This document shows, piece after piece, positions 1-53,792 of a stretch of DNA of 64,000 nucleotides. Position 1 is the first letter of the stretch; the number at the start of each line of letters is the position of its first letter. The notes under the pieces were generated by a model. That model worked only from the letters and a program-made list of their open reading frames with translations. It had not been told where the DNA came from and did not search any database. Source of the stretch: Octopus vulgaris. Its lineage: Eukaryota. The stretch lies in contig OX597817.1 in assembly GCA_951406725.2 (NCBI GenBank), forward strand, positions 53,134,001-53,198,000, read 5' to 3'. A program made the position numbers and the translations under genes.

Positions 1-2505
<2,505 letters not shown>

Positions 2506-2742
2506 CTAAATGTATATATGTGTATGTATGTATGTAGGTACGTATGTATGCATGCATGTATGTATGCATGCAAGTATGTATGCATGCATGTTCGTAAGTA
2601 TGCATGCACGTACCGACGTATGTATGTATGTATATATGCATGTATGTATGCATGCATGTATGTATATATGTATGCATGTATGTACGTATGCATACATGTA
2701 TGTATGCATGCATGCATGTACGTATGTATGTATGTTTGTATG

Positions 2743-2773
<31 letters not shown>

Positions 2774-2789
2774 GTATGTCTCTTCTATT

Positions 2790-4950
2790 TTTTAATTATT
2801 ATAAATCTTCCACTGAGGAGAGAGCCGGTTTCGAACAAAGATACAAGGCTCCACCTTTAGGATATAGCTAACACAGGTAATTCACATTTGGAACTTAAGA
2901 AAATTCTTGCCTATTTTTACTGTTCCACTCACAGATTGGACTTGTAATGTACAAATTAACCGGTCGATTTCTCTTTCTCAAAATTTCAGATTATCCAGAT
3001 TCTCCTTTAAGCATTTACTAACGGAACCTAGTGCTCCAATTATTATTGCTATGAATATGAATTCATGGTTTGAATATAGAAGCTGGAGGTTTCGAAGCAG
3101 TTGTCCATAGATATCCTCTTTTTCTTCGATTTTCAAAGAGATAATTATACCTGCGGGGCAGCTGACCTCTATGATGACACATACCTTTGTCCCTCTGTCC
3201 GAAACAACAATATCCGGTCTGTTATGCTTATATTTGACAGAAGTTTTGATGGGAATATTCCACCAGTATTCCTTGAGTTGGTGTTTATAAATGTATTCCA
3301 TAACTGGGATTTTCTAAGTTTATTTCAGGACAGTCTTTTTTGCGGATGGCATTGTAAATTGTTTTAGCAACAACATCGTGCCGTATAGTTAGGTAATATA
3401 GTGAGACATTTTCGGACAGCTGCTAATCACGTGCGTGATGTCTTCCACTGAAACATGACATAGACTACACATACGGTTGCACCTTGGGATTATAAGAACG
3501 TCACTGTCTCTCTTCCTCACCAAGTACTTTGTGGCAATCTTCCGTTCCTGGATTGCAAACGCATAGCCATCAAAGTGTGATGTAATGTAGTGGTATTGTG
3601 TCCAAGAGAGGCTGCGCTTCGTGTCAATTCTATGTCTTCTTCAAGCTTCTGGACAACATACCCATACATGGGTTTCTTTTTAGGAGTTCGTTGCCAACTC
3701 GTACAATGCTGCTCACTTCACTTTACAGCACTGCATTTATATCTATTTTTGCTGCTGTTGTTTAGCAGGTGCTGTCTGAGTGATACCATACGGTATTCGA
3801 AGGCCGTCTGCTCTGATATCAGGCCTCTACCATCTTCGTTTCTTAAGTAGAGCTTGTCAACATCACTCTTTCTATGGAAGTTCCCACTTGTTGTCAGAAT
3901 TTTTGTGGATTTTGATATTTATGGGGTGGATTTCCTCTTCAGACCAATCAAGTGTCCCAAATGTTGGGGTCAGCACTGTTACTGAAAATGCATTGTTGGA
4001 TGTTGTTTTGTTGCAAGAGGATAATTCCGACTGCCATATTTTCCTAAATCTGGTGTAATATTCTAGGGTCACTCTACCTTTATTCACAGTGCCTTCATAT
4101 GATACATTTTCATCTATGCCTAGGTACTTGCAACATTTTCTGTGTGGAATGGAGGAGATAGAGAGACCGTTGATGCACAGGTTTTGGGTTTGGGGGATTG
4201 ATTTTCCTTGTTCTATAACCAAATATGAATATTTCTTTTGGCCAAATTCGGCATTCTTGCCAGTAAATTTGCGCAGAGACAGGCCAATTCAACTTCGCAC
4301 GTTTCACGACTTGCTTTCGTATGCGGCAAATTGCGGTTCGGCTCCACACACTCTCCTACTGTTTATAATAATCGTTTTTACAGCTCCTATTCAATCTTGA
4401 TATGTTATAGTAGGCAGATATGAATCTAACGCGTGTATTTGCTCCTGTCTTGGCAAGCTTAAGTACAGAGCTTTGGTAATCACCTTTTTGTAAATGCTAC
4501 AGAATTAGTCTTTACATTGTGTTGACTTGTTGTGGCAACTTTCTAATTTATGACCAACATGAACATTTTCTGGCACTCGAAATAAAAGTTATCATTAATT
4601 AATCGCGAGGTAATGTTACATCATTTATGCACAGCCACACGCAAACTCCTTAGCGATGCTTTTAAAAATTGATAATGATGTGATTAAAGTCTTCGGTTTG
4701 GATTTTGCTGATCTTACAATTGCTGTCAGCTGTTGTTTTCTGTATTTGATTGGGAGTTTTCCTAGTTTGTACGGGACTGATTGCCAACTGAGATTTATAA
4801 ATTTGTCACCACTTTACACCAGGCTTTTAGATTGGTTTATTCCCTCTGTGGCTCGTGTCTTTAGCTCTGTGTTCCTTCTCAGGGGAACATGAGTATAGAA
4901 AGAAGTAGATCTTCTGAAGTCTATTTCGGTTTTGCTATAGTGTTAACTAA
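2790..4950 (-). mobile_element. Degenerate RLE-type (R4/NeSL-like) non-LTR retrotransposon remnant
   Basis: Fragments KHNRPDIVV..VCVIIEVSCP (PD-D/ExK endonuclease), IIIGALG, KYLGIDEN, IWQSELSSCNK, TFGTLDWS; several stops and frameshifts. Confidence 0.8.
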
Positions 4951-5498
4951 AATTTTCTAATATTTTTTAAACATAGGCCTTTGTCAGTTTTTATTTCATT
5001 CACCTTCCCAAGTTTATTCGCAGATTGAGCGAAATATTTGCTTCTCCTTTCATCTCTAAGTCTGTATACAAAAGTTCCAGTAGGAGAATGGGCTCGTGGG
5101 GTCGGAGCGTATCCCATCTCTCTGCTTCATTTCATGTTTGTATTTTGTCCTTGTTGTATCTCATTCGATTTCATTCGATTTCATTATATTTTGTAAAATT
5201 TTAAAAGTCATATAATCATTGTGTCTGACCCCAATCAGGCTGTATTGTCCTCCTCTATGTTTGGACCCTTGTGGCTAATAAAGAAATTGGATGTCACTTC
5301 ATTGTTGCGTCATAATGTTAATATAGACGTAAGGTCACGTGTGTCTGTATATGCCTGGATATTCTGTGTGCATGTGTGTGTGTGTCCGTGTGTTAATGTG
5401 TGTGTATATGGGATTGAGATTAGAATTTTTCTCTAAAACAGCTGAGTTGAAGGGCAAAAGTTTACAAATGCACTTGTTCATAATAATAATCTATGACG

Positions 5499-5577
<79 letters not shown>

Positions 5578-5615
5578 TATGTATGTATATATACATAGAT
5601 ACATACATATAGATA

Positions 5616-5663
<48 letters not shown>

Positions 5664-5677
5664 GCACACATACACGC

Positions 5678-5735
<58 letters not shown>

Positions 5736-5883
5736 TTCTAATTTCTCAGAAATGGCAAAAGAGCCGGTTTCTAGCCTAGAAACAAACGTCTTTCATTTGA
5801 ATCTGCACATGAAACAACCTTGTCTAGTATTTACGTAAGCATGTATGTGTGACTCGTTTGCTTCGATTTCTCCCTCTTCCTTC

Positions 5884-5914
<31 letters not shown>

Positions 5915-6168
5915 TCCCCCTTCTCTCTCCCCTGCCTGCTCCTCTTCACCGAGCACCACAATGCATTTTACTTTCCTCATCATCTCTAAAGTTAACTTTT
6001 CATTTTTTCTGTTTTCCTTTCTCCCACTTGAACACTTTAGTGGGACAGAAAAATATTTATATAAACATATAATGAAGTTTATTATAACGAATATATATAC
6101 ATGCACACGCACACACATATTGTGTGTGTGTGCGCGCGCTCGTGCGTGCGTGCATGCGTAATTTGCAG

Positions 6169-6266
6169 CGGACAGGGCGGATTCTGAGAACACTGAAAAC
6201 CAGGGAAGAATTTTTGTTGCTTCAGTGGAAGACATTTATTCTCAGCCGCCTGTAAATCCATTCTAA
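6169..6266 (+). CDS. Possible terminal coding exon of an upstream gene (DRADSENTENQGRIFVASVEDIYSQPPVNPF*); duplicated at 17244-17341
   Basis: Acceptor-like atttgcag followed by an open frame to TAA in non-repetitive sequence. No homolog recognised. Confidence 0.25.
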
Positions 6267-6469
6267 ACCAGGAAGATTGTCTTTGCAGCGCATTTTATCC
6301 ATTGAGGCAATGTTGGACTGCTTCAAGTCTCGCCACTAGTTTAACGCTATGAGATGACTATATTTGAGAGCAATTGTCCACACGATTGAGAATCTCTATC
6401 TCCAAAGAACAAGGTCTCTTGCTCTCTGGTTCTGGATGATCTCACAATCCGCCCTGACAAACACTTACA

Positions 6470-7053
6470 TATTCTTTTCTACTCAAGGCACAAGACCCGA
6501 AATTTTGGGGAAGGGAACCAGTCGACTTCATCGACCCCAATACACAACTGGTACTTAATTTATCGACCCCGAAAGGGTGAAAGGCAAAGTCGACCTCGGC
6601 GAAATTTGAACTCAGAACGTAAAGACAGACGAAATATCTATTTCTTTACTACCCACAAGGGGCTAAACACAGAGGGCACACACAAGGACAAACAAACGGA
6701 TTAAGTCAATTACATCGACCCCAGTGCGTAACTGGTACTTAATTTATCGACCCCGAAAGGATGAAAGGCAAAGTCGATCTCGGCGGAATTCGAACTCAGA
6801 ACGTAACGGCAGACGAAATACCTATTTCTTTACTACCCACAAGGGGCTAAACACAGAGGGCACAAACAAGGACAAACAAACGGATTAAGTCGATTATATC
6901 GACCCCAGTGCGTAACTGGTACTTAATTTATCGACCCCGAAAGGATGAAAGGCAAAGTCGACCTCGGCGGAATTTGAACTCAGAACGTAACGGCAGACGA
7001 AATACCGCTAAGCATTTCGCCCGGTGTGCTAACGTTTCGGCCAGCTCGCCGCC
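6470..7053 (-). mobile_element. tRNA-derived SINE array: head + two 184-bp units + body with a different tail
   Basis: Junctions at 6638/6639, 6822/6823 and 7006/7007 (184-bp spacing). B-box GAGTTCAAATTCC; central GCCTTTCATCCTTTCGGGGTCGATAAA..AGTACC domain (Meta-SINE-like). Confidence 0.85.
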
Positions 7054-7821
7054 TCCATTACGTCCAGCCTTCTGGTGCAGGGCCTGTCCCGGGACCTCTC
7101 TCAGCGCGCAACTCCTGCGTCGAATGAGACTAAAGCCCTGGTAAGATAATCTGGCGGAAGGCGGAGGACATGTCCGTAGCAACACATGCAGCGGATTACT
7201 ATGAGGAAGGAGCAAAGTTGAACTCGGCGGGATTCAAACACAGAATGTAATGACCAACGAAATGCCACTAAGCACTTTGTCCGATGCACTAACGGTTCTA
7301 CCAGTTCGCTGCCTTAACTCAGTCATAATAATACTAAAGGAAATGTCTTTCTAAATGGAAACCATATTACATGTCAGTTAGAAATTTCAGCCTCTTTCTA
7401 ATGATAAACAGATTTAGGCCTGTTCTTTCCAGGGTCTGCTCTGTTTCTTCCTTCTTTTAATTCTTTGGAGAAAATATTCTACTTGCAACGTTTGGAAAAG
7501 ATATCTTGATTGGTTTTGCTAAATCCTGCATATATGTTTTAAGCGAATTGCCCGGAGTCCACTGGGACCTGTTGCTAAATTTAAACTGATTTTATTAATA
7601 AATGATATTACATCTTCCGCTTTTATATATTATGCAATCAATGATTGCCAATTCTCTCTATAGAACCGTAGTGTTAGCGAACTCATTTGGTTTCGTTATT
7701 TGCATGTCTCCCACCGAGGAGATGGAAAATACGTTTGAATTATTCATTTCGTATTTCATTTACCCTTTTGAGGTGAGCAGTCACTAAGCCATTTCCTTAC
7801 AACAAAGACGCTTACTTTGGA

Positions 7822-8145
7822 ATGTACCAAAGCTGATACATTTGCAAATGTATAGATGTTTTTATATACTCTATGATCCCCGTTCTCTTTCCGATCTTCC
7901 CTTTTCGTGGGAATGTTTGATTTCGTTTTCAATTTCCGGGGGTGCACTTTTGAAGTGAGACTTTTCTCTGTTGTCTTTGGCTTGTTTATTTAAGCCGTTG
8001 TTATGTACCAAAGCTGATTTATTTGAAAATTTATAGATGTTTTTATATACCCTGTGATCCCTGGTCTCTTTCTGCTCTTCTCTTTTTGTGGGAATGTTTA
8101 ATTTCGTTTTCAATCTCCGGGAGTGTCCTTCAGAAGTGAGACTTT
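7822..8145. repeat. Two imperfect ~180-bp direct repeats inside a decayed AT-rich (probably Penelope-like) element
   Basis: atgtaccaaagctgat...gaagtgagacttttc occurs twice. Minus-strand peptides are similar (NIPTKRE..DHRVYKNIY). Confidence 0.55.
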
Positions 8146-8822
8146 TCGCTTTGAAGTGGGACTTGTTTATTTAACCCGTATCAGATTGTTATGCTTCGTG
8201 TCATTAGAATTTTTGTCTCTGGGAATTATATATTTATCATTTCTTTCTAGGACAAATTTAATGCATATGGTTTGCATTATCGGCATAAATTGCTAAAGTT
8301 TTATGTCATCGTCTTGCACGTAGCCAATTCTTTGGGACGATCTTTTTGTAAATAGATTTCTGGTTGATTTTGGGATAACTTCACGTTAGATAGAATTCTA
8401 GTACATATTATAGAGTGTGTATCTACCGATTCTTTTACATCGCATGTAGCTTTACTACATTATGGTCTGAGAAGCTCGTCGGCATTACCTTCACATTATG
8501 AATGAGAGCCATATTATTTGTGAAACACAGCTCTAAAATGTGTTTTGCTCCCATTCGGGTCGGGAATTATTTGCCCCAAGAACATCAAATGAGAAAATGG
8601 GAATTCTGCATTTTATTCATATAGAGACATTCTCAAGAGAATATGGTTTCTGAGACAACCACTACGTTCACATGCGGCTCAAGTTCGGTCAAGATCTTGT
8701 TTTACTCTTCTAAAAGTTATCTTCAAATTTACCTCCAGGATGTGAGGCATCCGGTTGTAGATTTGTCGTACATATAACTGCATCAATGCTTGCATGGCTG
8801 AATGCAAGCACGTGTTTGTGTG

Positions 8823-8899
<77 letters not shown>

Positions 8900-8903
<4 letters not shown>

Positions 8904-10269: not shown

Positions 10270-13583
<3,314 letters not shown>

Positions 13584-13820
13584 CTAAATGTATATATGTG
13601 TATGTATGTATGTAGGTACGTATGTATGCATGCATGTATGTATGCATGCAAGTATGTATGCATGCATGTTCGTAAGTATGCATGCACGTACCGACGTATG
13701 TATGTATGTATATATGCATGTATGTATGCATGCATGTATGTATATATGTATGCATGTATGTACGTATGCATACATGTATGTATGCATGCATGCATGTACG
13801 TATGTATGTATGTTTGTATG

Positions 13821-13851
<31 letters not shown>

Positions 13852-13867
13852 GTATGTCTCTTCTATT

Positions 13868-16026
13868 TTTTAATTATTATAAATCTTCCACTGAGGAGAG
13901 AGCCGGTTTCGAACAAAGATACAAGGCTCCACCTTTAGGATATAGCTAACACAGGTAATTCACATTTGGAACTTAAGAAAATTCTTGCCTATTTTTACTG
14001 TTCCACTCACAGATTGGACTTGTAATGTACAAATTAACCGGTCGATTTCTCTTTCTCAAAATTTCAGATTATCCAGATTCTCCTTTAAGCATTTACTAAC
14101 GGAACCTAGTGCTCCAATTATTATTGCTATGAATATGAATTCATGGTTTGAATATAGAAGCTGGAGGTTTCGAAGCAGTTGTCCATAGATATCCTCTTTT
14201 TCTTCGATTTTCAAAGAGATAATTATACCTGCGGGGCAGCTGACCTCTATGATGACACATACCTTTGTCCCTCTGTCCGAAACAACAATATCCGGTCTGT
14301 TATGCTTATATTTGACAGAAGTTTTGATGGGAATATTCCACCAGTATTCCTTGAGTTGGTGTTTATAAATGTATTCCATAACTGGGATTTTCTAAGTTTA
14401 TTTCAGGACAGTCTTTTTTGCGGATGGCATTGTAAATTGTTTTAGCAACAACATCGTGCCGTATAGTTAGGTAATATAGTGAGACATTTTCGGACAGCTG
14501 CTAATCACGTGCGTGATGTCTTCCACTGAAACATGACATAGACTACACATACGGTTGCACCTTGGGATTATAAGAACGTCACTGTCTCTCTTCCTCACCA
14601 AGTACTTTGTGGCAATCTTCCGTTCCTGGATTGCAAACGCATAGCCATCAAAGTGTGATGTAATGTAGTGGTATTGTGTCCAAGAGAGGCTGCGCTTCGT
14701 GTCAATTCTATGTCTTCTTCAAGCTTCTGGACAACATACCCATACATGGGTTTCTTTTTTAGGAGTTCGTTGCCAACTCGTACAATGCTGCTCACTTCAC
14801 TTTACAGCACTGCATTTATATCTATTTTTGCTGCTGTTGTTTAGCAGGTGCTGTCTGAGTGATACCATACGGTATTCGAAGGCCGTCTGCTCTGATATCA
14901 GGCCTCTACCATCGTTTCTTAAGTAGAGCTTGTCAACATCACTCTTTCTATGGAAGTTCCCACTTGTTGTCAGAATTTTTGTGGATTTTGATATTTATGG
15001 GGTGGATTTCCTCTTCAGACCAATCAAGTGTCCCAAATGTTGGGGTCAGCACTGTTACTGAAAATGCATTGTTGGATATTGTTTTGTTGCAAGAGGATAA
15101 TTCCGACTGCCATATTTTCCTAAATCTGGTGTAATATTCTAGGGTCACTCTACCTTTATTCACAGTGCCTTCATATGATACATTTTCATCTATGCCTAGG
15201 TACTTGCAACATTTTCTGTGTGGAATGGAGGAGATAGAGAGACCGTTGATGCACAGGTTTTGGGTTTGGGGGATTGATTTTCCTTGTTCTATAACCAAAT
15301 ATGAATATTTCTTTTGGCCAAATTCGGCATTCTTGCCAGTAAATTTGCGCAGAGACAGGCCAATTCAACTTCGCACGTTTCACGACTTGCTTTCGTATGC
15401 GGCAAATTGCGGTTCGGCTCCACACACTCTCCTACTGTTTATAATAATCGTTTTTACAGCTCCTATTCAATCTTGATATGTTATAGTAGGCAGATATGAA
15501 TCTAACGCGTGTATTTGCTCCTGTCTTGGCAAGCTTAAGTACAGAGCTTTGGTAATCACCTTTTTGTAAATGCTACAGAATTAGTCTTTACATTGTGTTG
15601 ACTTGTTGTGGCAACTTTCTAATTTATGACCAACATGAACATTTTCTGGCACTCGAAATAAAAGTTATCATTAATTAATCGCGAGGTAATGTTACATCAT
15701 TTATGCACAGCCACACGCAAACTCCTTAGCGATGCTTTTAAAAATTGATAATGATGTGATTAAAGTCTTCGGTTTGGATTTTGCTGATCTTACAATTGCT
15801 GTCAGCTGTTGTTTTCTGTATTTGATTGGGAGTTTTCCTAGTTTGTACGGGACTGATTGCCAACTGAGATTTATAAATTTGTCACCACTTTACACCAGGC
15901 TTTTAGATTGGTTTATTCCCTCTGTGGCTCGTGTCTTTAGCTCTGTGTTCCTTCTCAGGGGAACATGAGTATAGAAAGAAGTAGATCTTCTGAAGTCTAT
16001 TTCGGTTTTGCTATAGTGTTAACTAA
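13868..16026 (-). mobile_element. Duplicate copy of the RLE-type non-LTR remnant
   Basis: Same peptides as 2790-4950. Confidence 0.8.
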
Positions 16027-16574
16027 AATTTTCTAATATTTTTTAAACATAGGCCTTTGTCAGTTTTTATTTCATTCACCTTCCCAAGTTTATTCGCAGA
16101 TTGAGCGAAATATTTGCTTCTCCTTTCATCTCTAAGTCTGTATACAAAAGTTCCAGTAGGAGAATGGGCTCGTGGGGTCGGAGCGTATCCCATCTCTCTG
16201 CTTCATTTCATGTTTGTATTTTGTCCTTGTTGTATCTCATTCGATTTCATTCGATTTCATTATATTTTGTAAAATTTTAAAAGTCATATAATCATTGTGT
16301 CTGACCCCAATCAGGCTGTATTGTCCTCCTCTATGTTTGGACCCTTGTGGCTAATAAAGAAATTGGATGTCACTTCATTGTTGCGTCATAATGTTAATAT
16401 AGACGTAAGGTCACGTGTGTCTGTATATGCCTGGATATTCTGTGTGCATGTGTGTGTGTGTCCGTGTGTTAATGTGTGTGTATATGGGATTGAGATTAGA
16501 ATTTTTCTCTAAAACAGCTGAGTTGAAGGGCAAAAGTTTACAAATGCACTTGTTCATAATAATAATCTATGACG

Positions 16575-16657
<83 letters not shown>

Positions 16658-16695
16658 TATGTATGTATATATACATAGATACATACATATAGATA

Positions 16696-16743
<48 letters not shown>

Positions 16744-16761
16744 GCACACATACACGCACAA

Positions 16762-16813
<52 letters not shown>

Positions 16814-17544
16814 TTCTAATTTCTCAGAAATGGCAAAAGAGCCGGTTTCTAGCCTAGAAACAAACGTCTTTCATTTGAATCTGCACATGAAACAACCTTG
16901 TCTAGTATTTACGTAAGCATGTATGTGTGACTCGTTTGCTTCGATTTCTCCCTCTTCCTTCTCTCTCTCTCTCTCTCTCTCTCTCCATCTCCCCCTTCTC
17001 TCTCCCCTGCCTGCTCCTCTTCACCGAGCACCACAATGCATTTTACTTTCCTCATCATCTCTAAAGTTAACTTTTCATTTTTTCTGTTTTCCTTTCTCCC
17101 ACTTGAACACTTTAGTGGGACAGAAAAATATTTATATAAACATATAATGAAGTTTATTATAACGAATATATATACATGCACACGCACACACATATTGTGT
17201 GTGTGTGCGCGCGCTCGTGCGTGCGTGCATGCGTAATTTGCAGCGGACAGGGCGGATTCTGAGAACACTGAAAACCAGGGAAGAATTTTTGTTGCTTCAG
17301 TGGAAGACATTTATTCTCAGCCGCCTGTAAATCCATTCTAAACCAGGAAGATTGTCTTTGCAGCGCATTTTATCCATTGAGGCAATGTTGGACTGCTTCA
17401 AGTCTCGCCACTAGTTTAACGCTATGAGATGACTATATTTGAGAGCAATTGTCCACACGATTGAGAATCTCTATCTCCAAAGAACAAGGTCTCTTGCTCT
17501 CTGGTTCTGGATGATCTCACAATCCGCCCTGACAAACACTTACA

Positions 17545-18128
17545 TATTCTTTTCTACTCAAGGCACAAGACCCGAAATTTTGGGGAAGGGAACCAGTCGA
17601 CTTCATCGACCCCAATACACAACTGGTACTTAATTTATCGACCCCGAAAGGGTGAAAGGCAAAGTCGACCTCGGCGAAATTTGAACTCAGAACGTAAAGA
17701 CAGACGAAATATCTATTTCTTTACTACCCACAAGGGGCTAAACACAGAGGGCACACACAAGGACAAACAAACGGATTAAGTCAATTACATCGACCCCAGT
17801 GCGTAACTGGTACTTAATTTATCGACCCCGAAAGGATGAAAGGCAAAGTCGATCTCGGCGGAATTCGAACTCAGAACGTAACGGCAGACGAAATACCTAT
17901 TTCTTTACTACCCACAAGGGGCTAAACACAGAGGGCACAAACAAGGACAAACAAACGGATTAAGTCGATTATATCGACCCCAGTGCGTAACTGGTACTTA
18001 ATTTATCGACCCCGAAAGGATGAAAGGCAAAGTCGACCTCGGCGGAATTTGAACTCAGAACGTAACGGCAGACGAAATACCGCTAAGCATTTCGCCCGGT
18101 GTGCTAACGTTTCGGCCAGCTCGCCGCC
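17545..18128 (-). mobile_element. Duplicate copy of the 184-bp SINE array
   Basis: Matches 6470-7053 at offset 11075. Confidence 0.85.
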
Positions 18129-19897
18129 TCCATTACGTCCAGCCTTCTGGTGCAGGGCCTGTCCCGGGACCTCTCTCAGCGCGCAACTCCTGCGTCGAAT
18201 GAGACTAAAGCCCTGGTAAGATAATCTGGCGGAAGGCGGAGGACATGTCCGTAGCAACACATGCAGCGGATTACTATGAGGAAGGAGCAAAGTTGAACTC
18301 GGCGGGATTCAAACACAGAATGTAATGACCAACGAAATGCCACTAAGCACTTTGTCCGATGCACTAACGGTTCTACCAGTTCGCTGCCTTAACTCAGTCA
18401 TAATAATACTAAAGGAAATGTCTTTCTAAATGGAAACCATATTACATGTCAGTTAGAAATTTCAGCCTCTTTCTAATGATAAACAGATTTAGGCCTGTTC
18501 TTTCCAGGGTCTACTCTGTTTCTTCCTTCTTTTAATTCTTTGGAGAAAATATTCTACTTGCAACGTTTGGAAAAGATATCTTGATTGGTTTTGCTAAATC
18601 CTGCATATATGTTTTAAGCGAATTGCCCGGAGTCCACTGGGACCTGTTGCTAAATTTAAACTGATTTTATTAATAAATGATATTACATCTTCCGCTTTTA
18701 TATATTATGCAATCAATGATTGCCAATTCTCTCTATAGAACCGTAGTGTTAGCGAACTCATTTGGTTTCGTTATTTGCATGTCTCCCACCGAGGAGATGG
18801 AAAATACGTTTGAATTATTCATTTCGTATTTCATTTACCCTTTTGAGGTGAGCAGTCACTAAGCCATTTCCTTACAACAAAGACGCTTACTTTGGAATGT
18901 ACCAAAGCTGATACATTTGCAAATGTATAGATGTTTTTATATACTCTATGATCCCCGTTCTCTTTCCGATCTTCCCTTTTCGTGGGAATGTTTGATTTCG
19001 TTTTCAATTTCCGGGGGTGCACTTTTGAAGTGAGACTTTTCTCTGTTGTCTTTGGCTTGTTTATTTAAGCCGTTGTTATGTACCAAAGCTGATTTATTTG
19101 AAAATTTATAGATGTTTTTATATACCCTGTGATCCCTGGTCTCTTTCTGCTCTTCTCTTTTTGTGGGAATGTTTAATTTCGTTTTCAATCTCCGGGAGTG
19201 TCCTTCAGAAGTGAGACTTTTCGCTTTGAAGTGGGACTTGTTTATTTAACCCGTATCAGATTGTTATGCTTCGTGTCATTAGAATTTTTGTCTCTGGGAA
19301 TTATATATTTATCATTTCTTTCTAGGACAAATTTAATGCATATGGTTTGCATTATCGGCATAAATTGCTAAAGTTTTATGTCATCGTCTTGCACGTAGCC
19401 AATTCTTTGGGACGATCTTTTTGTAAATAGATTTCTGGTTGATTTTGGGATAACTTCACGTTAGATAGAATTCTAGTACATATTATAGAGTGTGTATCTA
19501 CCGATTCTTTTACATCACATGTAGCTTTACTACATTATGGTCTGAGAAGCTCGTCGGCATTACCTTCATATTATGAATGAGAGCCATATTATTTGTGAAA
19601 CACAGCTCTAAAATGTGTTTTGCTCCCATTCGGGTCGGGAATTATTTGCCCCAAGAACATCAAATGAGAAAATGGGAATTCTGCATTTTATTCATATAGA
19701 GACATTCTCAAGAGAATATGGTTTCTGAGACAACCACTACGTTCACATGCGGCTCAAGTTCGGTCAAGATCTTGTTTTACTCTTCTAAAAGTTATCTTCA
19801 AATTTACCTCCAGGATGTGAGGCATCCGGTTGTAGATTTGTCGTACATATAACTGCATCAATGCTTGCATGGCTGAATGCAAGCACGTGTTTGTGTG

Positions 19898-19929
<32 letters not shown>

Positions 19930-19972
19930 TGTATGTATGTATGTATGTATGTACATATATATATATATATAT

Positions 19973-20022
<50 letters not shown>

Positions 20023-38399: not shown

Positions 38400-38573
38400 A
38401 GTCTCCGTCAGAAGAAAATCGAAGACTTCAAACATAAACAACTGATGGAAGAGGAGGAGAAGAAACAAAAGGACCTTGAATGGGCCGAGTACCAAGCGGA
38501 AGTAAGGAAAAATGCCATTGCAGAAGCCAAGAAGAAAATGTACTTCCAGACGGACCGCATCAAGGGTCTGCAT
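38400..38573 (+). CDS. CFAP210: CFAP210-like exon (SLRQKKIEDF...MYFQTDRIKGLH)
   Basis: ctttag/gtgagt, phase 0-0. FQTDRIKGLH matches the conserved YQTERVKNFH-type motif. Confidence 0.88.
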
Positions 38574-38708
38574 GTGAGTAGCTGTGTCCTTTCACGTTTC
38601 CGTATCTGAGCTGGTATTCATTGTAGGTGTCGGGAAATGGGAGTGGTTCCTGTTTTAAGCTTTACATATTCATGTGAATGCATAAATGATGACAGGTGAT
38701 AGACCGAA

Positions 38709-39650
38709 GGCGGTGAGCTGGCAGAAACGTTAGCACGCCGGGCGAAATGCTTAGCGGTATTTCGTTTGCCGTTACGTTCTGAGTTCAAATTCCGCCGAGG
38801 TCGACTTTGCCTTTCATCCTTTCGGGGTCGATAAATTAAGTACCAGTTACGCACTGGGGTGGACGTAATCCACTTAATACATTTGTCTGTCTTTGTTTGT
38901 CCTCTCTGTATTTAGCCCCTTGTGGGTAGTAAAGAAATAGGTATTTCGTCTGCCGCTACATTCTGAGTTCAAATTCCGCCGAGGTCGACTTTGCCTTTCA
39001 TCCTTTCGGGGTCGATAAATTAAGTACCAGTTACGCACTGGGGTGGACGTAATCGACTTAATACTTTTGTCTGTCCTTGTTTGTCCTCTCTGTGTTTAGC
39101 CCCTTGTGGGTAGTAAAGAAATAGGTATTTCGTCTGCCGCTACATTCTGAGTTCAAATTCCGCCGAGGTCGACTTTGCCTTTCATCCTTTCGGGGTCGAT
39201 TAAATAAGTACCAGTTACGCACTGAGGTCGATATAATCGACTTAATACCTTTGTCTGTCCTTGTTTGTCGTCTCTATGTTTAGCCACTTGTGGGTAGTAA
39301 AGAAATAGGTATTTCGTCTGCTGCTACATTCTGAGTTCAAATTCCGCCGAGGTTGACTTTGCCTTTCAACCTTTCGGGGTCGATTAAATAAGTACCAGTT
39401 ACGCACTGGGGTCGATGTAATCGACTTAATCCGTTTGTCTGTCCTTGTTTGTCCTCTCTGTGTTTAGCCCCTAGTGGGTAGTAAAGAAATAGGTATTTCC
39501 TCTGTCTTTACGTTCTGAGTTCAAATGCCTCTGCAGTCAACTTTGCTTTTCATCCTTTTGGGGTCGATACCAGTTGAACACTGGGATCTATATCATCAAC
39601 TTATTCCCTCCCCAAAATCGCTGGCGTTGTGCCAAAATTTGAAATCAATA
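38709..39650 (+). mobile_element. Intronic SINE array: head + four 184-bp units + body with a different tail
   Basis: GGTATTTC restarts at 38756, 38940, 39124, 39308 and 39492. Confidence 0.9.
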
Positions 39651-39877
39651 TTACTAAAACGTGTGTGAAAGTGGGGGGGGGCATTCAAAGCCCTATGAAT
39701 GTTGGTCTCGAATCCGTAATTCATGAAGATTAATTCAATCAACTATGGATGGCCGTTTCCCACATAAAGTATAGATTTTGTCTTGAATTGGTAAATCTTG
39801 GCGATTTGTTGGTTCCTTTCTTGCTGGACCATTCCACATTCTCCTATTTATTTCCTAGTTTTTGTTTCTGATTCCAG

Positions 39878-40083
39878 CGAGGTTTTCAGTTTTCTGAAAT
39901 TCTGAGAGAGAGAGAAGAACAGATAAAGATGAAGAATTTGCAAAGGGAAACTGCAAGAATGCGGGCGGAGATAGACTACAAGGAATTAATGCAACAAAAT
40001 GAAGAGATGGAAAGGATGGAACAGAAGAAGCAAATTAATAAAAAGAAGGCCTTGATGGAACAAATCGAAGATTTTAAAGCCAA
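39878..40083 (+). CDS. CFAP210: CFAP210-like exon (RGFQFSEILREREEQI...EDFKA)
   Basis: ttccag/gtaaga, phase 0-2. SEILREREEQI is typical of the start of the trichohyalin-plectin-homology domain. Confidence 0.88.
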
Positions 40084-47229: not shown

Positions 47230-47457
47230 TATTTCTTTACTGCCCACAAGGGGCTACATAAAGAGGGGCAAACAAGGACAGACAAACGGATTAAGTCGAT
47301 TATGTCGACCCCAGTGCGTAACTGGTACTTATTTAATCGACCTCGAAAGGATGAAAATCAAAGTCGACCTCGGCGGAATTTGAACTCAGAACGTAGCGGC
47401 AGGCGCAATACTGTTAAGCATTTCGCCCGGCGTGCTAACCTTTCTGCCAGTTCGCCA
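47230..47457 (-). mobile_element. Monomeric copy of the 184-bp-unit SINE
   Basis: Head + body + tail ending GTAAAGAAATA|GG. Confidence 0.85.
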
Positions 47458-47479: not shown

Positions 47480-49198
47480 CGGAGACTTTTAGTAGAACAA
47501 AAAGTAGAAACTCTTGTAAGAGATGCACTTTGGTGTAGAGTTTCCAGAGAAAACGTCAGCAAATTTAAGCAAGATGCTTCTCAGCACAGTTTATATTGGT
47601 AAAATAATCAGGGATTAGCACTTAATATTAGCCATCATCATGACGTAGATGATCTTCGACAAGATAACGTTGATTTTTTTTCTATTGAAAGTGGAAGTAC
47701 AGTGTCATAATTGCAACAAGTTCGTGTTTTCTGGAATCGTAAAAATTTAAAGGATTCACATTCTGTAGACAATAAATGAGAAGCAAAATATTTAAATCAT
47801 TATATAAGAAAATTCGACGGTGCCATGTCCCATATGTTCTATGGAACTAGATGATGCAACAGAGACTAGAAGACTTGCTGCTTATGGAATACAGGGAGTT
47901 GTATACAGGTTTGTTGGTCATACAAGAAATGTTGGTCATAGCGTACAATCCTGCCTACATACTTACTTCAGTGTCCGATAGAACAGATAAGGAGGCAACG
48001 CATTGAAAGAATGCCTAGGTGTAATGCTGAATAAGTTCTCGATGAAATAATATTTTGGAAATTATATTCGGCTGTGACATCTGCCGGAAATAGTTACTAG
48101 CAGTCTTACTTATCAGTGCAGGAACAAATTGATGTTGGAAATGTTCCCGCAACTTTACAGATAGATTTACACGCCGATAAGAAGTCAGTTGGTGAACATT
48201 ACTTGACATGTTAATTACCATCTTGCTACGAACTTGCCATACTAATGCCAGATGTTCATAAAGAAGGAGCACATAATTCACAAAGAATGATTATAACAGG
48301 TTTTAGAGTAGGAAATAAGATTGAAAATTTAGAAAACTGTTAGTGACTCTCATAAAGTTTATGATCCAATGATGCAGCCATGTTTCTTCCTTCCGGTTCA
48401 AATAGCTGGCATCTTGTGTCATTAGATAAGATGGTCAACTAGCAAATGACCCGTATATAGTTTAATTGCTTCATTCTGTTTGCTATCAGTTAATATATTA
48501 CACCATGGACAACGTTTGTTTTAGCAGTATTGAGATGAATACAAGTTAAAGTCCTGTCGTCTAAAACACATTCGCAGCCATCAAGCGACATCGAGAACAG
48601 AATTACGTAATGTTTTTTACAGATACTGTTTACACTGTTGATGCTGATCTTACAAGTCACAGGTATACACTGCCCCTAACCCCTAAGGTGGCGAGCTGGC
48701 AGAAACGTTAGCACGCCGGGCGAAATGCTTAGCGGTATTTCGTCTGCCGCTACGTTCTGAGTTCAAATTCCGCCGAGGTCGACTTTGCCTTTCATCCTTT
48801 CGGGGTCGATTGAATAAGTACCAGTTACGCACTGGGGACGATTTAATTGACTTAATCCGTTTGTCTGTCTTTGTTTGTCCTCTCTGTATTTAGTCCCTTG
48901 TGGGTAGTAAAGAAATAGGTGTACACTGCCAAATTCACTTGTAGGTAGTGATGGATATATAGTGAAGCACTACCAAGATGTTGTGGCTGTAGTAAGAACA
49001 GTTGGAAAAACCTACTTTACTTGCAATTTTCACATGTAATTTTAAGTGGGTAGAAGTAGAAAACGAGCTTATTAGAGGGCAAAGAGCTGTTGATTGCCCA
49101 AATATTACTGTAAAGATTAAGTTGAAGCGGCAATTATTATTGAAAGACATTAAATCTGATCTCCTTGGAAAAGTAATTGTTTATGTGAACGAGATATG

Positions 49199-53568: not shown

Positions 53569-53792
53569 TATTTTTTTACTACCCACAAGGGGCTAAACAC
53601 AGAGGGAACAAACAAGGACAGACAAACGGATGAAGCCGATTACATCGACCCCAGTGCGTAACTGGTACTTAATTTATCGGCCCCGAAATGATGAAAGGCA
53701 AAGTCGACCACGGCGGAATTTGAACTCAGAACGCAGCGGCAGACGAAATACCTATTTCTTTACTACCCACTAGGGGCTAAACACAGAGAGGG
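53569..53792 (-). mobile_element. Head-less SINE concatemer: partial tail + one full 184-bp unit
   Basis: Junction at 53752/53753; no head upstream. Confidence 0.85.

Follow-up and report, generated by a model that had tools for sequence, protein, structure and literature searches.

Head-less tandem arrays of an Octopus vulgaris SINE, probably seeded by insertion at a fixed position of older SINE copies

Tandem arrays of a SINE in the Octopus vulgaris genome are, at a probability that we put at roughly 0.6, seeded by self-targeted insertion into older SINE bodies at their position 48, and lengthened by DNA duplication and further insertion. Self-targeting, one of the explanations offered in the initial annotation of this DNA, is supported by three lines of evidence: an old head and a target duplication retained in three arrays, the age polarity of the units, and a LINE inserted at the same base. 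That annotation had overlooked out-of-register duplication, a sister junction at position 15 and the partner-like LINE at the site, and its interpretation is borne out only in part.

Results

The SINE and its arrays in the window

The analysis started from a 64,000-nt stretch of contig OX597817.1, here called the window. The SINE is 231 nt long and consists of a head (positions 1–47), a body (48–165) and tail A (166–231). The following copies and related features were located in the window.

38709–38755, plus strand: SINE head, positions 1–47, young A type, with an A-box-like motif
38756–38939, plus strand: unit 1, body and tail A (TAG subtype)
38940–39123, plus strand: unit 2, a chimera with 5′ variants as in units 3 and 4 and 3′ variants as in unit 1
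39124–39307, plus strand: unit 3 of the same array
39308–39491, plus strand: unit 4 of the same array
39492–39652, plus strand: older terminal body bearing a type C tail, the presumed original target
6469–7053, minus strand: head, two A units and a terminal B-type body
17544–18128, minus strand: second copy of the 6469–7053 array, within an 8.9-kb near-identical duplication
53569–53791, minus strand: 39-nt tail piece (53753–53791) and one A unit
48687–48917, plus strand: full-length monomer
47230–47456, minus strand: near full-length monomer
5057–5287, plus strand: 3′ end of an L1/Tx1-like LINE of family T2, whose tail resembles tail A of the SINE

Junctions of the main array were located at 38940, 39124, 39308 and 39492 (spacing 184, 184 and 184 bp), and those of the 6469–7053 array at 6822 and 6638, 184 bp apart, with GATATTTC at 6638. 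The third array has its junction at 53752. The exact 184-bp spacing reported earlier for these places was therefore confirmed, as was the lack of the 47-nt head in the units: each added unit comprises positions 48–231 of the element. It is also correct that two arrays end in a body with a different tail (C in the main array, B at 6469–7053) and that one begins inside a tail (53753–53791); neither a head nor a target duplication was seen for this last array. The three loci had been described as independent. Arrays are present at all three, but the copy at 17544–18128 lies in an 8.9-kb, 99.7% identical duplication, so the 6470 array is not an independent locus.

The main array is intronic and adjoins an exon matching a CFAP210-type protein. 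Exon-like frames flank it at 38400–38573 and 39899–40000, and the former matched trichohyalin-plectin-homology / CFAP210 proteins. The terminal C unit and its downstream flank were present in contigs of runs X2, X3 and X8, in a comparison that covered these two parts.

The duplication (1–8900 and 11079–19975, 99.7% identical, 11,078-bp period) either arose recently in tandem or reflects an artefact of assembly. The T2 LINE end at 5057–5287 was copied with it. It also carries a CR1-like reverse transcriptase frame (3–2276, PF00078), frameshifted in the second copy; the CR1-like LINEs of the window were considered as a partner of the SINE and rejected, as no shared tail was seen. A 181-bp two-copy tandem repeat at 7822–8179 is unrelated to the SINE.

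Family traits of the SINE

Genome-wide, 134,670 exact tail ends were counted, and 181 SINE units were found in 800 kb picked by position. In being short, dispersed and of high copy number the repeat agrees with a tRNA-derived SINE. ARAGORN detected no tRNA genes, and an Rfam search of 38600–39800 gave no tRNA match and no significant family of any kind, ribozymes included. The putative A-box-like and B-box-like motifs were picked by eye against the general consensus, and the SINE may resemble octopus SINEs and its central body the 66-bp Meta domain.

Target duplications at a score of at least 10 were detected for 57 of 191 elements in a seven-class tally and for 0 of 150 controls. They flank monomers as well as whole arrays. 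In A-type elements the duplication starts immediately behind the tail, both in unique DNA and at position 48, and its first bases are usually GGT, GAT or TAT. The full-length monomer at 48687–48917 has such a duplication (48662–48674 and 48918–48930, one mismatch), starting with GGT directly after the tail. Two CCCTAA-like units lie between this duplication and the monomer head (48675–48686); they resemble a telomeric repeat or a non-templated addition. A reading of the arrays as TRIM/LTR elements, of the Helenus/Ajax kind treated in passages of PMC10886601, was rejected on the LINE-type ends, the duplications of 10–30 bp and the differing terminal units.

The tail end GAAATA is indeed the reverse complement of the restart site TATTTC, as had been pointed out, but its role looks incidental: elements landing elsewhere share the tail end, and the junction folded no better than shuffled sequences (z 0.75).

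Junction counts genome-wide and a sister junction

The exact 29-mer junction occurred 20,831 times across the 2.8-Gb genome, whereas the reversed-pattern control gave 0. Among exact ends genome-wide, 29,863 of 77,568 TAG-type tails (38.5%) continued with GGTATTTC, as against 693 of 22,395 CAA-type tails (3.1%). This difference favours a second fixed junction, located at head position 15 and used by CAA-type tails, for which 1,256 exact cases were counted. A looser pattern, capturing the position-15 junction only, gave 1,992 matches; the first 100 of these comprised, by eye, 66 CAA, 24 CAG, 7 TAA and 3 TAG tails, that is, a C-type tail in 90. Targeting to position 48 is a preference (38.5%) and not exclusive. 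TAG and CAA subfamilies were nested in both orders, which indicates that they overlapped in time.

In the 800 kb picked by position, 20 of 55 A-containing clusters were arrays (13 dimers, 6 trimers and 1 tetramer), and 13 of 17 joins of a TAG tail to a SINE were in the position-48 register. The total sample amounted to 1.6 Mb. Its part beyond the 800 kb was selected by junction or tail pattern, and hence enriched; the second duplicate copy in the window was removed before counting. Dimers made up 92 of the 152 sampled arrays, the longest array had 11 units, and at least six units were present in 4 of 152. Where loci were picked on the B tail alone, 11 of 37 were arrays and at least two more had an A tail upstream. 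Among the matches listed, arrays occurred near contig starts and also 10–40 Mb inside contigs.

LINEs sharing the SINE tail

Three related LINE families, T1, T2 and T3, have 3′ ends that aligned with tail A of the SINE. T1 had many near-identical copies with a 1130-aa frame, and its ORF2 contained endonuclease, reverse transcriptase and zinc finger domains (PF03372, PF00078 and PF13966). The best PDB match of this ORF2 was human L1 ORF2p (E 1e-53), and the Atlas returned clusters carrying the same domains. By domains and similarity the LINEs appear L1/Tx1-like and are candidate members of the Tx1 clade. T1 is young, with many intact 1130-aa frames (L251–L266) and, among the 15 loci listed, (TATC)n-like repeats downstream. 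The T1 copy L252 showed no ORF1 upstream.

Most of the T2 copies examined were followed by TTGGAT, the 3′ flank being TTGGATG. In three copies (L274, L276 and L278) the junction with another repeat fell on one and the same base of that repeat, and this site was seen unoccupied in L086 near 3701. Other T2 copies occupied unrelated sites starting with the same few bases, which is the behaviour of the SINE as well. A tandem array with a 144-bp period at G000:C21:42753587-42755262 bears a T2 LINE tail.

Of 98 matches, 30 loci were retrieved, and 17 of these carried T3 tails; in every one of the 17, which had been selected on the junction pattern, the SINE body followed from position 48. Of the 17, 15 matched T1 ORF2 by tblastn. 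Of three T3 5′ ends that were traced, two retained the target upstream together with a short duplication, one of them at an array junction. Speaking against this picture, the 260 nt upstream of 11 apparent T3 truncation points, some of which were internal deletions, contained no recognisable SINE head. The T3 tail is of the CAA type and its 3′ flank is GGTATTTC; the LINE and the SINE target one site. By its tail and its site, a T3-like LINE is a candidate mobiliser of the SINE.

Sequence preferences at the insertion site

Non-SINE flanks of TAG tails matched GGTATTTC over 0–7 bases far above background. The flanks of terminal TAG tails decayed along GGTATTT, with a per-site enrichment of about fourfold per matched base, and the off-site flanks of CAA tails leaned to AGA/TAT; each subfamily's off-site flanks thus lean to its own junction sequence. 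The matched flank bases were also present in the upstream duplicate, which indicates that they derive from the target. Exact copies of GGTATTTC in the 800 kb numbered 35 at non-SINE sites and 39 at SINE sites, 15 of the latter already junctions. The 8-mer is therefore common outside SINEs, yet no TAG tail on a non-SINE flank matched 8–11 bases of it, and recognition must need more than the 8-mer.

The SINE consensus contains no run of four T, and under the rules of Pol III transcription read-through of source copies is expected. Direct signs of RNA-templated bases were weak: 12 versus 4 discordant positions (p 0.04), and A-type bases at positions 61–63 in 9 of 46 terminal B units versus 3 of 32 solitary B copies. 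Terminal C and D bodies showed a young-to-old gradient that target choice and locus picking could give too.

The strongest competing explanation also has insertion in place but lets the endonuclease of the T3 lineage alone set the site, with the sister subfamilies moved by different LINE lineages. T3 LINEs do use the same base, the three LINE families differ in their 3′ flanks ((TATC)n in T1, TTGGATG in T2, GGTATTTC in T3), and the missing 8–11-base matches agree with recognition of more than an 8-mer; endonuclease-set targeting is, moreover, the rule stated for Tx1 elements in the sections of PMC4494074 that deal with them. However, T3 has a CAA-type tail, yet CAA-type SINEs reach the site in 3.1% of cases and TAG-type SINEs, which share it, in 38.5%, a result not predicted by the endonuclease alone. 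The nesting of the subfamilies in both orders, and hence their overlap in time, and the leaning of each subfamily's off-site flanks to its own junction sequence also argue against it. We therefore rank RNA pairing acting jointly with the endonuclease first, as probable, and regard the endonuclease alone as rather unlikely.

Insertion footprints and loss of the old head

An older head upstream together with a duplicate of positions 48 to about 62 was kept in 3 of 129 headed arrays (L161, L155 and L281). The old heads were identical to A at 38/49, 42/53 and 61/62 positions, respectively, and private bases were common to both copies of the duplicated segment. L281 was nested, with an outer duplication around the B copy and an inner one around the newest A. 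A fourth array, in which an old head fragment ends 14 nt upstream, was excluded from the count. These three footprints show that an existing copy was entered at position 48 by target-primed insertion.

The old head was absent from the other 126 of 129 arrays, and the direct insertion footprint is confined to the three. We infer that the old head was lost at insertion or later, through homology with the new head. Two of the three surviving old heads were strongly diverged, as would fit homology-driven loss, but the third was not. The young heads on the remaining arrays are expected also from a template switch at a new site.

Two further arrangements were observed. A four-unit array (L021-L023, G000:C1:1774950-1775760) had a flanking duplication of about 85 bp, and its 5′ end was joined by homology to an older SINE relative. 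At L007, L180 and other loci, full-length SINEs were chained behind one another's tails with 10–20-bp gaps, separate from the position-48 arrays.

Age and polarity of the units

Non-CpG divergence from the subfamily majority was 3.3–3.8% for TAG/TAA-type A units, 4.6–5.5% for most C-type A classes, about 7% for B, 10–12% for D and 12–14% for C. The upstream unit was younger than the last one in 62 of 76 pairs (51/65, 7/7 and 4/4 by group), and a position-48 body was preceded by a B, C or D tail in 1 of 384 cases. Terminal units were about as old as solitary copies. The heads of arrays ending in C or D were young, with divergences of 0.05–0.06 versus 0.155 and 0.111.

Template switching at new sites, from an old B, C or D RNA tail by a homology jump to a read-through A RNA, would land the head, the A unit and the old body as one piece. 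It accounts for the young heads, and the whole-array duplications of 21 of 53 B-ended arrays start with the AATAT/ATTAT motif of the old unit. Target-duplication mismatch is compatible with it as well (0.148, 0.109–0.197, in B-ended arrays; 0.111 and 0.109 in solitary A and B copies), but this clock was dropped for dating whole arrays, as the intervals overlap and it does not separate in-place insertion from template switching. Against template switching, three different old tails would have to be copied while A was active, and from many unrelated sources, given that 65 terminal B units formed no clusters (minimum distance 0.047), and neither an old head with a 48–62 duplication nor LINEs with the target on both sides can be produced in this way. 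We consider it improbable.

Copying of whole arrays from one or a few multimeric master genes, named in the initial annotation as an outcome that would speak against its proposal, is very improbable. Such masters would account for the target duplications around whole arrays, for the recurring order A, A′, B and for the 5′ truncation of a few arrays. The pairwise distance, however, was 0.133 both for 65 terminal B units and for 32 solitary B copies. Terminal B units being as diverse as solitary ones, they do not come from a few multimeric masters. Divergence of upstream and terminal units was uncorrelated (rho 0.13, p 0.30), and arrays ended in four different tail types. No informative pair of paralogous flanks with different unit numbers was present in the sample.

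Growth of the arrays

In dimers of two A units, 21 of 384 rare variants were shared (control 0.016), and 22 of 27 such dimers shared fewer than two. Most are therefore separate insertions. The 30 arrays with at least three A units gave another picture: sharing in the first pair climbed from 0.06 to 0.27 towards the 3′ end, that in the last pair dropped from 0.33 to 0.14, inner pairs shared 0.53–0.66, and the first and last units shared 0.04–0.10. This pattern is that of duplication with breakpoints inside units, of which unit 2 of the main array is an example. Longer arrays probably grow largely by out-of-register local duplication, through unequal exchange or slippage. Directly behind one array (L208-L210, G000:C1:15779648-15780177) lies a 101-bp tandem repeat of the 3′ part of the B copy and its flank, in a different register and formed by local duplication.

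The sharing of inner variants far above the control is what would be expected if the junction itself arose from DNA alone, by microhomology-driven tandem duplication or ectopic gene conversion. The mostly unrelated units of A dimers do not fit this, and dimers of A with B, C or D, target duplications and LINEs at the same base require retrotransposition. A DNA-only origin thus accounts for growth but not for seeding, and there is little to recommend it as a whole. Least credible is rolling-circle reverse transcription of a 184-nt circular RNA, the other origin suggested earlier, which suits the fixed unit length and the complementarity of tail end and restart site but predicts identical units or uniform sharing, contrary to the dimers and the first and last units, draws no support from the Rfam search of 38600–39800, which found no significant family, and leaves the old terminal bodies, the second junction and the LINEs unexplained.

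Discussion

Proposed mechanism

In the self-targeting mechanism that we favour, an L1/Tx1-like LINE would mobilise the SINE, as the tail match and the presence of T3 at the same base suggest, and target-primed insertion would place a young SINE at position 48 of an older SINE body. Source copies that themselves sit at position 48 would be read through, and their RNA, carrying GGTATTTC and further body sequence, may pair with the nicked target. Such pairing would favour SINE bodies, and every insertion would rebuild the landing site. Homology between the two heads may lead to replacement or collapse of the old one, and arrays of at least three units would be extended by unequal exchange or slippage.

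More tentatively, and short of an even chance, site choice could be a heritable, RNA-encoded trait of each SINE or LINE subfamily, in which read-through of the surroundings of the source copy guides new insertions to matching sites. Where the source lies in a copy of its own family, the loop would reinforce itself.

Relation to known systems

A close parallel is with the Tx1-Mar LINEs and SINEU of crocodilians, and Tx1 in Tx1D, in which, as far as the relevant parts of PMC4494074 describe them, a Tx1-type LINE and a SINE likewise share a preferred site inside a repeat. Sequential insertions of Tx1-Mar/SINEU give tandem copies, as here, but the target is a DNA transposon and the tandem copies sandwich a target duplication (PMC4494074, same parts). 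In the octopus the passenger SINE has its own family as target, 126 of 129 arrays are head-less with a seamless junction, and the sister subfamilies differ in the site that they use.

For R1 of Drosophila, 3′ read-through of the target sequence has been proposed to pair with the nicked strand (PMC2718515, in part), and R1Bm and SART1Bm are further cases of read-through pairing as cited in a passage of PMC7265360. According to the same portion of PMC2718515, off-target sites of R1 resemble the normal target, as was found here, and upstream homology leads to precise loss of target sequence while re-insertion makes tandem arrays, to which we liken the present SINE. Elements of the R1/SART1 type are, in contrast, autonomous LINEs in rDNA or telomeres, whereas this is a non-autonomous SINE targeting dispersed copies of itself. 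Their tandem arrays consist of full-length copies with an intervening target duplication, an arrangement that is approached here in 3 of 129 arrays.

The sSat of squamates, in the sections of PMC10702118 that define them, have tandem units shorter than the SINE and often head-less, a longer terminal unit and one dominant register, all shared by the octopus arrays. Unequal recombination and same-locus insertion are the causes offered in those sections, which name no targeted site. Squamate sSat reach hundreds of units (PMC10702118), in contrast to the longest array of 11 and the 92 dimers of 152 here, and the last unit in the octopus is often of another, older family. At least four homogenised middle monomers define an sSat; here at least six units were found in 4 of 152 arrays, and only inner units were alike.

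A large share of the rodent SINEs Dip, B1 and B2 lies in head-to-tail multimers, as here; these are described in the pertinent passages of PMC8466645 as multimers of whole SINEs, possibly made by insertion at the tail, whereas the 184-bp arrays are internal and head-less. Tail-adjacent neighbours like those of the rodent multimers also occur in the window's SINE family. A tRNA-like head, a shared central body and exchangeable tails are features of MetaSINE/MESC and octopus OR-type SINEs (parts of PMC4824008 and PMC4758252) and may be features of the present element, a candidate MetaSINE. PMC4824008 makes no mention of tandem MetaSINEs, and here the copies form tandem arrays. By analogy, the octopus system acts like the targeting of Tx1-Mar/SINEU combined with the read-through priming of R1, and it ends in small sSat-like arrays. 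Our literature search, which extended to freely available papers, turned up no account of this SINE system.

Significance

The tens of thousands of events in this genome constitute a natural experiment on endonuclease versus pairing of the RNA 3′ end in the target choice of LINEs. Subfamilies that are two tail bases apart go to different fixed sites, and the genome holds intact, near-identical copies of a related LINE, so that cell experiments could address the question. The arrays also suggest a specific path by which a dispersed SINE could become tandem arrays of a single fixed register. Many copies are chimeras of units of different age and would lead repeat dating and annotation astray. 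If the self-reinforcing loop is real, it would supply landing sites for the SINE and its LINE and seed satellite-like arrays throughout the octopus genome.
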